Source: a virus (taxonomy: Duplodnaviria; Heunggongvirae; Uroviricota; Caudoviricetes). From it: a stretch of DNA of 64,000 nt. How positions within the stretch are numbered: position 1 is the first letter of the stretch; each line of letters opens with the position of its first letter. This document shows positions 30,001 through 33,000 of this stretch, piece by piece. A program made the position numbers. The stretch is from positions 158,796-222,795 of the IMG/VR virus record IMGVR_UViG_3300049044_000033; one strand, given 5' to 3'.

Positions 30001-33000
30001 CCTGCGTGGACAGTCTGGGGTTCGAACCCAGGACCTACGGTTTAAGAGACCGTCGCTGCTACCGACTGAGCTAACTGTCCATTGGGGCATAAATGCCCTT
30101 TGGGGTGAAGGACGGGAATCGAACCCGCGGCATCCAGGACCACAACCTAGCGTTCTACCATTGAACTACCGACACCATAAAGAACTAGTGTGCTTCTACG
30201 CCAAAGAGGGATATGGGCAGACAACCATCAAGCTGCCAACCCTCTCACTTTCCGGTTTATCCCGTGCCACAGGTCTTACCCTTTTACCGGGAGACATTAC
30301 GCAGCAGTCGGGCCTTCGCCTCACTCATTATAGGATGGCTGCTTCTAGGCCAACCTCCTAGTTCTTGGATGCCCGACTAGGGTTCGAACCTAGAACCTTC
30401 TGAGTCAGAGTCAGACGATCTACCAATTGATCTATCGGGCAATGTTTGGTGACCCATGGGGGAATTGAACCCCCGTTCTCGCCTTGAAAGGGCGCGCTCT
30501 TAACCACTAGAGGAATGGGCCATGTAGGTTTAGATGCCCCTCGAGGGATCGAACCTCGGTTGTTGGTTTCAGAAACCATTCTCTTACCATTAGAGGAAGG
30601 GGCAATATTAGGGATATTTAACGACGCGTACCCTTGAGATCGTCGCAACATAAAGTTGGTAGCCCGACGGAGGATCGAACTCCGTTTGCCGCGCTGAGAA
30701 CGCAGATTATTACCAATATAAGACCGGGCCATGGTCAAGTTTGAGCCGGCCGCCTGCCAGCGGAGCCGAGGAAGTGGCAGCTTCCAACAACGTAGCCGCT
30801 TTTCCTTCGCGACTTTGCCATTTCTTGGAGGACTAGGTGGGGTTCGAACCCACAAGGGATATTATCCGTCGCATTAAGAGTGCGGTGAGCCAACCAATTG
30901 CTCAACTAGTCCAAGAGCTGATTCACAGCTTAGAATTATTCAGCGTGGGCAAAGGGGTTTGAACCCTCACAAACAGTTGGGAAGACTGTCATGCTACCGT
31001 TACATCATGCCTACATGGTCAACGGGCAAGTGGCGAAGAGGATGTTTTTCCCGGCTTTACCAATTTGCCTATCCCCCGTCAAATGAGCACAAGTGCTGGT
31101 CGGGGGAGGAGGACTTGAACCTCCAAACAGGGTCTCCTAATGACGATAACCCTCAATCAATCGGCCCGTTGGAGCTCTAGAGAGGACTCGAACCTCCTCA
31201 CCAGCCTTCGCAGGGCTAGGTCCCATCCAGTGGGCTAGAGCATGTTTGGTCCCAGGGGCACACCACTTGAGCAGTTAATTACTCTGCTCGTGAAGGCTTA
31301 GTAGGAGGTTCCGGCTGATGATTTCAGTCTCCAACGGCCCCTGGAATAATATTGGTCGCGGTGACAGGACTCGAACCTGCAATCTCTTGTTCCCGAAACA
31401 AGCGTGATACCACTTTCACTACACCACGAAATAGCCCTATGACAACTTTCAGGGCTTGTTGTCTCTGGCTCCCAAGGAGGGACTCGAACCCCCACGCTTT
31501 CGCACCTGGTTAACAGCCAGGCGTATCTACCAGTTTCACCACTTGGGAATGATTTGTGGGCAAGTTGAGGATTGGACGTTTTCGGTGCTACCACTACACT
31601 ACAGAGTCATTGCTGACTCTGCTAGGACTCGAACCTAGCCTCGCTTTTTTCAAGAAAGATAACCCAAGCCATTCGGCCCACAAATTCAGTCGGGATAACA
31701 GGGTTCGAACCTGTGACCTCATGTCCCCCAGACATGCGCGCTACCACCTGCGCTATACCCCGATGTTAACGGAACTTCATACCGAACAAAGTGTTACCGC
31801 GCCGTTTGCGGGCTTTCTTCTTCGACATTGTTCCTCTGTTAATGGTCTTTGGAGACCATTGTGATTTATCATGCTCTGCATTTACTGTTGCCAGTGATGG
31901 AGCATATTCATTGTCTTTTAGCATCTTCCGATGCCTACTTTTTGCTGTCTTCTTATACATTTGTAACCGATCAATGAGGAGTGATATCGTTCTCCTCAGT
32001 CGACTAAGCATGTTACCACACTTTGTCAACTCTTTTGGATTGCTAGGACGAAGCCTTCACAATCCCAGGTGGTCGTATAAGGATATCGACCACCGCCAAC
32101 CCAGCCGTAGCTAGTTAGCTCTCCTTTTTACTCCGGGGGTAATTTAACCGCCCCGTTTCATCCGGCTCATGCGCCCATTCAGGTTTATTTAAAGTGGCTA
32201 TCCCGCGGTCTCGTTCCGCACTTACCACTTGACACTTCGTAAGTTCCTTGTTACATTTACTTACGGAGTAGTCTGGATCATTACGTTACCGTAACATCTC
32301 CGATCTGTGTTTAGCAGCTTCTAAATCCGCTGTCAACAATTATTTTTGCTGACCTCTAAATTTATTTTCTGCTGTCGTTTCCGACGGTTAGTGTTGAATA
32401 AAAAAGCCCCGGAGTTTCCTCCGGGGCTTTGTTTCTCTGGATTGTTGGAAGACCTTAGTCTGTCCATCCTTCCTGGGAAACTGCCCCGGTCATATCAAGC
32501 TTATAATTGCTTTCTGGACGGGCTGGAATTGTACCGCTACGCTGCGACCATTCGGTGCCCATAGCGACGACGGTAAAGGATGCAGCTTTCAAGCTGGCCT
32601 TTCCGCATAGCATATGAGTTCCTTGGTTCAACATAGAAAGTCTCAATTCCTTTTCAATTTCGTGGACACCGTTGTGGTGACCGCTCTATTTATTATGCCA
32701 TTCAGTCTAGCTGTCAAGCACAAATTTCGCCACGCTGTAGAAAAAGTTTCCTACGTTGTGTTCGGACTGTATAATGCAATCCTACTAAGAAAGTTGCAGA
32801 AGCGTCAATTTATTTTTCAACGTTTCTACTTTCAGTGGAGAATGTCGGACTCGAACCGACCACCTCATGCTTGCAAAGCACGCGCTCTCCCAGATGAGCT
32901 AATCCCCCAATAACTTTATGCTACCAACACTCCCGAACCCTCTCGGTAAAGCCGTGCTTCTCACTTGGCGTTTGTTAGCATAGGACGTTGCCGCCCTTTA

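Follow-up and report, generated by a model that had tools for sequence, protein, structure and literature searches.

The window, i.e. the whole 64-kb stretch of DNA analysed here, belongs to a complete 462-kb phage genome with terminal repeats. On its minus strand, the gap between a tRNA-Gln and a tRNA-His gene is occupied by a structured, non-coding RNA that is present as a single copy in the phage genome and is surrounded by an array of 55 tRNA genes. The ends of this RNA are predicted to form a copy of the GTPase-associated centre (GAC) of 23S rRNA, which binds uL11 and contacts translation GTPases, and it is here called the GAC-mimic RNA. The features referred to below are the following, with positions in the GAC given in rRNA numbering.

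30366..30441, minus strand: tRNA-Gln(CUG) with encoded CCA, the upstream neighbour (ARAGORN; Rfam tRNA 67.5 bits)
30180-30366, minus strand: GAC-mimic RNA, 187 nt
30358..30366, minus strand: 5' strand of the closing helix, AAGAACUAG, equivalent to the top of H42 and terminating in G1055; 9 bp with 30180-30188
30332..30357, minus strand: G1056 and the H43 equivalent (1057-1081) with loop CUAGAAGCA, A1067 at 30346 (cmscan LSU and R1 alignments)
30323..30331, minus strand: AUAAU GAGU, equivalent to 1082-1090, holding the 1082-1086 pair (A-U in the window), A1085 and A1088
30206..30322, minus strand: 117-nt domain inserted after 1090 and ahead of 1091, base helix GAGG/CCUC, internal fold predicted only
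30202..30205, minus strand: UUUG linker joining the insert to H44, invariant and family-specific, absent from rRNA
30188..30201, minus strand: H44 equivalent GCGUAGAAGCACAC (1091-1104), A1095 at 30197, A1101 where rRNA has U (R1 alignment)
30180..30187, minus strand: 3' strand of the closing helix, UAGUUCUU, pairing with the 5' strand
30101..30175, minus strand: tRNA-His, the downstream neighbour (ARAGORN)
27034-27107: tRNA with anticodon CUA, carried by this phage

The RNA is tightly packed between its neighbours. By its match to the family covariance model R1, described below, it is spaced 1 nt from tRNA-Gln; its annotated closing helix begins on the last A of the tRNA-Gln CCA. tRNA-His is 4-6 nt downstream, and 4-5 nt when counted from the closing helix. 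Since the 3' end of tRNA-Gln abuts the RNA, 3' maturation of this tRNA would make the 5' end of the RNA, while the 3' end would arise by RNase P cleavage at the 5' end of tRNA-His. No rRNA genes were found in the 64-kb window with Rfam at gathering thresholds, in agreement with the initial annotation, which had noticed that no rRNA flanks the locus. A GOLLD RNA is located in the same window, 25 kb from the GAC-mimic RNA.

The 58-nt uL11- and thiostrepton-binding domain (E. coli 1051-1108) comprises the end of H42 together with H43 and H44. Directly after the tRNA-Gln CCA, CUAGGAGGUUGGCCUAGAAGCAGCCAUCCUAUAAUGAGUG on the minus strand tracks 23S positions 1052-1091. The initial annotation had reported a 23S segment at this place and proposed that it be aligned to a covariance model of 23S rRNA, and the resemblance was confirmed over this stretch: cmscan aligned 30306-30359(-) with positions 1095-1146 of LSU_rRNA_bacteria (18.2 bits, E=8e-4, 251 nt searched), and 33 of 39 nucleotides over 1052-1090 are identical to Acinetobacter 23S rRNA. 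Four of the six differences are either both sides of covarying pairs or a match to the bacterial consensus GAGU. The similarity works both ways, in that the Rfam LSU model finds the window and R1 finds the GAC of true 23S rRNA (44.8 bits, E=1e-14). A bona fide 23S rRNA (RF02541) was nevertheless rejected: only 52 model positions are covered, and the score of 18.2 bits falls short of the gathering threshold of 50, H44 is separated from the rest by the 117-nt insert, and the H42 kink-turn of conserved length is missing.

The anatomy had to be redrawn. The feature was originally described as 30286-30363, with an insertion of ~18 nt followed by H44, GCGUAAUGUCUCCCGGU, at 30286-30302; its correct extent is 30180-30366, and the true H44 half, GGCGUAGAAGCACAC, is placed by the family alignment and covariance model at 30188-30201, at the 3' end, directly upstream of the closing helix's 3' strand. 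The supposed H44 match, GCGUAAUG, sits within the 117-nt insert (30206-30322), which has no counterpart in any relative. The ~95 nt of further structure that had been noted consist of the remainder of the insert and the true H44. L10 had also been suggested as a ligand; this is improbable, as a plain helix that varies in both length and sequence stands in place of the H42 kink-turn region. The central claim of a stand-alone mimic of the L11-binding domain is strongly supported by the position of the RNA outside rRNA and between tRNAs, and by its membership in a large covarying family in which the secondary and tertiary signature of the GAC is retained, albeit the anatomy was partly wrong and the RNA as a whole had been missed. 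The roles suggested in the initial annotation, as decoy or scaffold for L11, GTPases, RelA, toxins or methylases, are candidate functions.

R1 is a covariance model of 138 positions trained on 16 other phage members, with the window excluded. It matched the window at 30182-30364(-) from end to end (model 1-138/138) with 85.9 bits and E=6.6e-27. At least 146 distinct family members were collected from viral contigs. A scan of IMG/VR with the 3' motif gave at least 120 viral loci, and more than 90 of the 99 such loci that were searched had full-length R1 matches. When loci were instead chosen by the H43 16-mer alone, 45 of 67 among the IMG/VR matches listed had full R1 matches of at least 59 bits, and contiguous 23S rRNA was found in none of the 67. 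On 100 unrelated tRNA-bearing viral loci (0.9 Mb) R1 gave no matches. Cultured phages of Pseudomonas, Aeromonas, Xanthomonas and Cronobacter carry the family RNA, Pseudomonas phages pf16 and UNO-G1W1, Cronobacter phage GAP32 and Xanthomonas phage XacN1 among them, and it is thus directly testable. The minimal member has 91 nt (L013:203-293).

The tRNA setting recurs throughout the family. Same-strand tRNAs were found within 1.5 kb of 57 of 97 members, opposite-strand tRNAs only in none (0/97), and a tRNA lies at most 30 nt away in 36 of the 97; flanking same-strand tRNAs are 1-9 nt upstream and 2-14 nt downstream. In bacterial genomes (596 Gb) the 18-nt 3' motif occurred mostly in coding sequence, with an estimated ~280 matches expected by chance; 10 of 120 loci had both motifs, and by eye perhaps 5-10 others were taken for divergent members; most are MAG contigs. 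Among database 'phage' records that contain the motif, a few short ones are simply contaminating 23S sequence. The family was not found in Rfam 15 or in the searchable literature. The window RNA belongs to a widespread, phage-borne RNA family that we have not found described.

The family alignment carries a clear record of structural constraint. Paired cells amount to 94.6% compared to 72.3% in shuffles, double changes occur at 18 of 22 pairs, and the covariation score is 0.50 against 0.12 in shuffles (0 of 500 reach it) and 0.04-0.13 with the partners slid. Pair 1058-1080 is UA34/GC31/AU19/CG4 and pair 1057-1081 is AU86/CG6, and the tertiary pair 1082-1086 covaries (UA53/CG23/AU12) even though it is outside the structure of the model. 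The pairs at the base of the insert also covary, as does the closing helix, in which all four Watson-Crick types occur; this helix spans 2-19 bp in the family and is conserved in sequence only at 1054/1055. In the window it is 9 bp long (AAGAACUAG/CUAGUUCUU) and is followed by G.A (R1056.A1103).

The nucleotides that hold the GAC fold together are likewise kept. G1055-C1104 is GC in 94 of 97 members and R1056.A1103 is GA or AA in 88, so that G/A1056.A1103 is retained; U1060/A1088 is UA in 92, A1085 and GAGU are conserved in at least 92, and G1071 and C1072 are each kept in at least 90. The triad G1055=C1104/A1085 has been described (PMC1919483). Position 1061 is variable in the family, as in rRNA, and a U1061A change was carried by a construct to stabilise the fold (PMC1802607). 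The loops of H43 and H44 (A1067, A1095) are the most conserved parts of the family RNA, and GCGUA.nAGCAC(A)C is kept in 44-47 of 47 members chosen by the H43 16-mer only. In members picked by the H43 loop alone the uridines of UUUG are present in 45-46 of 51, with G at its last position in 41 and A in 7. An insert is present in every parsed member, from 25 to at least 255 nt long (median 123), and ~11% of members have a second hairpin between A1077 and 1078, within the published uL11 interface. The window has all the family features, namely GAGU (30323-30326), the inserted helix, UUUG and then GCGUAnnAGCACAC with A1101. No copy of the sarcin-ricin loop was detected in the window RNA, there being no further LSU match at E<=10, and the motif AGUAxGAxAGGA was seen in 1 of ~140 members, of which those with the longest inserts were only partly captured.

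A non-functional captured rRNA fragment, contamination or chance resemblance would suit the nearly rRNA-identical H43 stretch, and the contaminated short records mentioned above are a precedent. This reading is already refuted by the covariation and the family-wide conservation, and we give it practically no weight: the genome is complete with terminal repeats and no rRNA was found, the R1 match to the window has E=7e-27, and hundreds of diverged copies show compensatory changes and family-specific features.

The complete GAC fold could also mean that the RNA is a spare part that docks on the host 50S subunit, where it would stand in for a damaged GAC or add to it, or would reshape the base of the stalk in favour of phage translation. 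The phage does carry translation genes (a seryl-tRNA synthetase, a bL12-like domain and the 55 tRNAs). However, the closing helix varies in both sequence and length (2-19 bp) and thus offers no conserved anchor to the 50S body, whereas the length of H42 is strictly conserved in rRNA (PMC1919483). We consider docking of this kind hardly credible.

The protein partners of the RNA were sought in the own genome and in 50 further carrier records. Phage uL11 (PF00298) was found in 0 of these 51 genomes, and a bL12 domain in the own genome and one other (2/50). RtcB ligase is absent from the own genome. When the 1565 ORFs lying no more than 5 kb from ~97 elements were clustered all against all, no conserved neighbouring protein emerged; the largest cluster, an AAA ATPase, was present at 7 of ~97 loci, and the others were ordinary tRNA-cluster genes (Pnkp-RNA ligase, CCA-adding enzyme, HNH endonuclease, TerD). 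Because uL11 was absent from all 51 genomes and no protein family recurs beside the RNA, its partner would be supplied by the host and not by the phage.

One protein of this phage does invite a comparison with Y RNAs, in that it has a genuine Ro60 gene whose product carries TROVE and Ro60-vWA domains, and no YrlA or YrlB is found next to it. The RNA might then be a modular Ro60 ligand in which the GAC copy, as effector module, takes the place of the tRNA-like domain, and the foot of the insert includes GGCGAAGG, which agrees with the Rsr motif GNCGAAN0-1G (PMC4201824), although this motif is short. Several observations make such a role very improbable. The Ro60 gene is 119 kb from the RNA, and TROVE/Ro60 occurs in 4 of 51 carriers, i.e. 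in the own genome and only 3 of the 50 others (1 of 19 complete ones). Only 15 of 140 members have CGAAG at the base of their insert, the readable TROVE-positive relative (L043) lacks it, and no Rfam Y-RNA match was obtained at E<=10 (YrlA RF02553, YrlB RF02565).

The RNA probably works off the ribosome, as an imitation of the GAC. We favour, with moderate confidence, a free-standing GAC mimic that is released by tRNA-processing enzymes, binds host uL11 and competes for the ligands of that site. The RNA would be transcribed together with the tRNA array, and enzymatic trimming of tRNA-Gln and tRNA-His would set it free. Its two ends, which between them rebuild the GAC (the last part of H42, then H43 and its A1067 loop, the turn at 1082-1086, and H44 and its A1095 loop), would adopt the compact tertiary structure. 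Host uL11, whose binding is suggested by conservation, would then bind, and the free RNA-protein particle would show the A1067/A1095 surface off the ribosome, in competition with ribosomes for whatever docks on or attacks the GAC: translational GTPases, GAC-directed toxins or defence effectors.

uL11 is proposed because, to our knowledge, it is the only ligand that binds the isolated 58-nt domain tightly. The interface of its C-terminal domain comprises 1058-1060, 1062-1065, 1075-1083 and 1088 (PMC1802607); these nucleotides are all present in the window RNA, and the insertion site at 1090/1091 is outside them. The 1077/1078 hairpin of ~11% of members, on the other hand, is an uneasy fit with uL11 binding as a universal requirement. 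The UUUG linker, A1101 and the obligatory helix, which have no rRNA counterpart, could alter the surface or form a different binding site. Two further points count against the GAC mimic as the best explanation: no gene association in the carriers examined points to a particular pathway, and against a catalytic toxin a stoichiometric decoy would protect poorly.

Binding of uL11 could instead be an end in itself, if an abundant RNA titrated free host uL11 and left ribosomes poor in it. RelA-dependent (p)ppGpp synthesis would be blunted, or RF1-dependent termination lowered in favour of the phage tRNA(CUA). Besides binding the isolated domain, uL11 takes part in EF-G GTPase activity and in RF1-dependent termination (PMC1802607). 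The phage carries a tRNA(CUA), and amber suppressors make up 10 of 11 suppressor tRNAs near family members compared to 3 of 8 in control loci; counted per tRNA, however, the difference (10/855 against 3/495) is not convincing. Read-through of TAG opens frames no more than that of TGA or TAA genome-wide, and hence there is no sign of TAG recoding; a recoding tied to tRNA(CUA) was dismissed, with no signal in window or genome. Moreover, ribosome-bound uL11 would stay in place, and the 1077/1078 hairpin of some members falls in the uL11 interface. Titration of uL11 is rated as quite improbable.

In a particular form of the GAC mimic, effectors of the host or of competitors that modify or cut the 23S GAC would be soaked up by the RNA, or would spend themselves on it as a sacrificial substrate. 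This would resemble the way in which phage tRNA arrays supplant or outcompete tRNAs attacked by anticodon nucleases, and the RNA is located within such an array, with the H43 and H44 loops as its most conserved parts. Nevertheless, we know of no anti-phage system that targets the GAC, and a stoichiometric decoy is inefficient against enzymes. A precedent for attack on the GAC exists in the toxin Tre23, which ADP-ribosylates H44 at 1095-1098 (PMC8661411), and tRNA arrays are discussed as anti-defence units (PMC12803027). The ADP-ribosylglycohydrolase encoded in the window was considered as a link to ADP-ribosylating GAC toxins and rejected, as the enzyme is not associated with the family (2 of 50 carriers). 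A decoy for toxins or defence effectors appears unlikely, although less so than uL11 titration.

Within the preferred GAC mimic, we tentatively suggest a 'ribosome-in-pieces' factor-docking site made by large phages, in which a small particle of the RNA and host uL11 captures translational GTPases or absorbs GAC-directed effectors of hosts or competitors; this more specific version we hold to be conceivable, with clearly less confidence than the mimic itself. If true, phages would possess an RNA-based means of anti-defence or of translation control that parallels their tRNA arrays. More generally, the family is large (at least 120 loci by the 3' motif) and under strong structural selection. 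If the RNA binds uL11 or GTPases, phages would have a new way to manipulate or protect translation, and a role as toxin decoy would point to GAC-attacking defence systems that have yet to be discovered. For structural studies of this classic RNA tertiary fold, which is also an antibiotic target, the family offers a natural collection of GAC variants in which insertions are tolerated at two sites.

We know of no other virus that encodes a stand-alone copy of a functional centre of rRNA. Leaders of ribosomal-protein mRNAs are cis-acting 5' UTRs and loose mimics. Like the L10 leader (RF00557), the GAC-mimic RNA is an extra-ribosomal RNA that imitates an rRNA protein-binding site of the stalk region, but it copies that site almost exactly and stands alone next to tRNAs, with no ribosomal-protein gene nearby; a ribosomal-protein leader was rejected, the RNA being flanked by tRNAs and without any Rfam leader match. 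With the stable RNAs T4 rnaC/rnaD and the large phage-associated RNAs GOLLD and ROOL it shares a niche co-oriented with tRNA genes, and presumably its release by tRNA-processing enzymes, but it is unrelated to them in sequence and structure; GOLLD lacks an rRNA-like module, and R1 with filters off gave no match to T4 rnaC/rnaD, which were thus discarded as members. The YrlA/YrlB Y RNAs are also modular, non-coding, found in phages, subject to tRNA-like processing and imitators of a translation component (PMC4201824), and a short candidate for their possible GNCGAAG motif is present in the window RNA. Y RNAs, however, mimic tRNA and adjoin Ro60, whereas the phage RNA mimics rRNA, and Ro60 is rare among its carriers (4/51) and distant. 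With the GAC of 23S rRNA itself the phage RNA shares the secondary structure, near-identical A1067 and A1095 loops and the tertiary signature of U1060/A1088, G1071/C1072, 1082-1086, A1085 with G1055-C1104, and G1056.A1103. In contrast to the rRNA domain, it is a free-standing gene in a tRNA array, has an obligatory helix between 1090 and 1091 followed by the invariant UUUG, carries A1101 for U, and has a variable plain helix in place of H42 with its kink-turn and uL10 site.

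The gap of 190 nt between the tRNA-Gln(CUG) and tRNA-His genes contains an RNA resembling the GTPase-associated centre (GAC) of 23S rRNA, i.e. the end of H42, H43 and H44 (E. coli 23S numbering is used for GAC positions). Directly after the CCA of tRNA-Gln the minus strand reads AGAACUAGGAGGUUGGCCUAGAAGCAGCCAUCCUAUAAUGAGUG. With cmscan in E-value mode, 30306-30359 aligned with the bacterial LSU model at its positions 1095-1146, corresponding to H43 and the start of H44 (18.2 bits, E=8e-4, 251 nt searched), and over 1052-1090 the window is identical to a real Acinetobacter 23S at 33 of 39 positions. 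No further rRNA-like pieces, and no copy of the sarcin-ricin loop, were found in the 251 nt at E <=10, no rRNA genes were found within the window, and the element occurs as a single copy in the phage genome. The initial annotation, which had described a mimic of this 23S segment after tRNA-Gln and without flanking rRNA, was therefore right as regards H43. On the other hand, it had assigned H44 to GCGUAAUGUCUCCCGGU (30286-30302), which lies inside an inserted domain; comparison with phage relatives instead identifies GGCGUAGAAGCACAC as the counterpart of the H44 loop and 3' strand of rRNA, GCGUAAUAGCUCAC, and the span of the element was revised to 30180-30366. The parts are:

30366-30441, minus strand, tRNA-Gln(CUG), upstream neighbour
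30180-30366, minus strand, the GAC-like RNA (window RNA)
30206-30322, minus strand, inserted domain of 117 nt
30188-30201, minus strand, H44 equivalent
30101-30175, minus strand, tRNA-His, downstream neighbour

The order within the window RNA is closing helix, G1056, H43, AUAAU-GAGU, insert, UUUG, H44, and closing helix again.

The same GAC-like stretch was found by blastn in unannotated gaps beside tRNA genes of cultured phages: Pseudomonas phages Astolliot, pf16 and UNO-G1W1, Aeromonas phage 4_4572, Xanthomonas phage XacN1, and further Milchi and Cronobacter phage GAP32. These loci share a 3' motif, UUUGGCGUARNAGCACAC, which represents the H44 loop and 3' strand, is absent from true 23S, and is followed directly by the complement of the bases preceding the H43 part. 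At least 120 viral loci carry this motif and at least 119 carry a 16-mer from H43, 67 of those listed being new. A covariance model (R1) built on 16 members, with the window RNA left out, matched the window RNA end to end (85.9 bits, E=6.6e-27). R1 also matched in more than 90 of 99 loci chosen by the 3' motif and, at 59 bits or more, in 45 of the 67 loci chosen by the H43 16-mer alone, none of which is contiguous 23S. R1 matched nothing in 0.9 Mb from 100 unrelated viral loci that carry tRNAs, nor did it match T4 rnaC or rnaD. Since the LSU model finds the window RNA, and R1 detects the GAC of real 23S (44.8 bits, skipping the insert of R1), the likeness to rRNA runs in both directions. Among Rfam 15 families none besides LSU matched the window RNA, and a full-text literature search returned no description of such a GAC-mimic family. 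Matches of the 18-nt motif in contigs of bacterial genomes were mostly chance ones in coding sequence, both motifs being present in 10 of 120 loci, mostly on MAG contigs; the family is essentially phage-borne, with complete carrier genomes of 56 to 519 kb. Astolliot has two tandem, divergent copies (locus L002, 1160-1477 and 1492-1672), and in the upstream one the loops are altered (GGCUUAGAAGUAGCC; UUUGGUGUCAUAACACGC) and the insert resembles that of XacN1.

Covariation was assessed on 103 distinct rows of the family alignment, which was fitted to the model and so favours structure: paired cells amounted to 94.6% versus 72.3% in shuffles, both-sided changes occurred at 18 of 22 pairs, and the covariation score was 0.50 versus 0.12 shuffled (0/500) and 0.04-0.13 with slid partners. 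Pair types, counted separately in 97 distinct members, were UA34/GC31/AU19/CG4 for 1058-1080 and AU86/CG6/UA2 for 1057-1081; all four Watson-Crick types were seen at each position of the closing helix, and GC, AU, UA and CG at the base of the insert. The tertiary pair 1082-1086 covaries (UA53/CG23/AU12; A-U in the window) though it lies outside the model structure, and G/A1056.A1103 is retained in 88 of 97. For unbiased conservation the 5' half was read from the set chosen by the 3' motif, where at least 90 of 97 members retain G1055, G1059, U1060, G1071, C1072, A1077, C1079, U1083, A1084, A1085, G1087, A1088, G1089 and U1090, 81 retain A1067, and position 1061 is variable (U57/A25/G7), as in rRNA. 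The 3' half was read from the set chosen by the H43 loop: GCGUA(A/G)nAGCAC(A)C is retained in 44-47 of 47 (A1095 in 44), and C1104 is U in 11. The rRNA domain has a G1055=C1104/A1085 triad (PMC1919483) and a compact fold bound by the uL11 C-terminal domain (PMC1802607). The analysis shows a tRNA-linked RNA family that is conserved, covaries and copies the fold of the GAC.

tRNAs lie within 1.5 kb of 57 of 97 members, always on the same strand, and within 30 nt of 36, where the usual distance is 1-9 nt on the upstream side and 2-14 nt on the downstream side; the window RNA has one 1 nt upstream and another about 5 nt downstream. This spacing geometry suggests that the window RNA would be excised from the tRNA transcript by tRNA 3'-end maturation and RNase P.

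The parent IMG/VR record (462,455 bp, direct terminal repeats, estimated complete; window at bases 158796-222795) holds within the window 55 ARAGORN tRNA genes, all on the minus strand between 10.5 and 32.9 kb, and upstream of this array, adjoining the phage seryl-tRNA synthetase gene (2493-3773), another RNA:

4703-5152, minus strand, full-length GOLLD RNA (171 bits, E=3e-46)

In or near the array are genes for a Bax1-inhibitor family membrane protein (10968-11666, minus strand, E=5e-51) and a cytidine/dCMP deaminase-like protein (19908-20420, minus strand). At 13425-13563 (minus strand) the marginal match of a nematode sRNA family from Rfam (39 bits, threshold 38) is surely spurious as such, and 13591-13667 (plus strand), containing AGGCGUAAAAGCAC, gave a weak partial R1 match (E=0.1); this intergenic region may hold another structured RNA. 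Open-frame coverage under code 11 is only 0.42 at 20001-40000 of the full genome record (G000:C1) versus 0.8-0.9 elsewhere, and 0.77 with TGA read through; the cause could lie in RNA genes, in small genes or in local recoding.

Candidate protein partners were sought in the carriers. Two genes of the phage itself are:

G000:C1:308076-309020 (856-2577 of locus L127), minus strand, Ro60 orthologue, 573 aa, TROVE and Ro60 vWA domains
41817-42767, minus strand, ADP-ribosylglycohydrolase, 316 aa (PF03747, E=2e-27), 11 kb from the window RNA

The Ro60 gene is genuine and lies 119 kb from the window RNA, with no recognisable YrlA or YrlB RNA beside it; as a family-wide partner Ro60 was rejected, since just 3 of 50 further carriers have TROVE. 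The glycohydrolase (2 of 50 carriers) likewise showed no association. uL11 was encoded in 0 of 51 genomes, bL12 in 2 of 50 carriers, RtcB was absent from the phage's own genome, and clustering of 1565 neighbouring ORFs gave no recurrent neighbour. A partial bL12 C-terminal-domain-like match (32.6 bits) lies outside the window at G000:C1:240996-241076 (minus strand), inside a 208-aa frame. Any protein partner must therefore be host-derived and widespread, consistent with a translation component or a commonly occurring effector of the host.

The uL11 C-terminal-domain interface in rRNA comprises 1058-60, 1062-65, 1075-83 and 1088 (PMC1802607); it is intact in the window RNA and does not include the main insertion site. 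We infer that the window RNA would bind host uL11 and, off the ribosome, may compete for ligands of the A1067/A1095 surface. A caution on uL11 binding is that about 11% of members carry a further hairpin at 1077/1078, just after A1077 and inside the interface; the window RNA lacks it. A decoy for GAC-directed toxins is conceivable, since the toxin Tre23 ADP-ribosylates H44 at 1095-1098 (PMC8661411). The idea that the RNA acts as a uL11 sink affecting RF1 was prompted by a phage tRNA:

27034-27107, minus strand, tRNA with anticodon CUA (ARAGORN call tRNA-Pyl), which could be an amber suppressor

Suppressor tRNA counts hint only weakly at such an effect, and stop-codon usage gives it no support, TAG read-through opening frames no more than TGA or TAA in the window and the genome.

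As a mimic of the GAC, the RNA differs from its model in several respects. The closing helix has no conserved sequence and a length of anywhere between 2 and 19 bp, so the H42 kink-turn and the uL10 part are not imitated. Inserts are highly diverse: a common class, CACCCC-GNRA-GGUAAGG, occurs in 25-29 of about 140 members, CGAAG at the insert base, as in the window, in only 15 of about 140, and the window's own insert has no detectable relatives in any other family member. Unlike the 23S GAC, all members that were parsed carry an extra helix at the U1090/G1091 junction, ranging from 25 to at least 255 nt (median 123); the bases after it are almost invariably UUU(G/A), and position 1101 is A.
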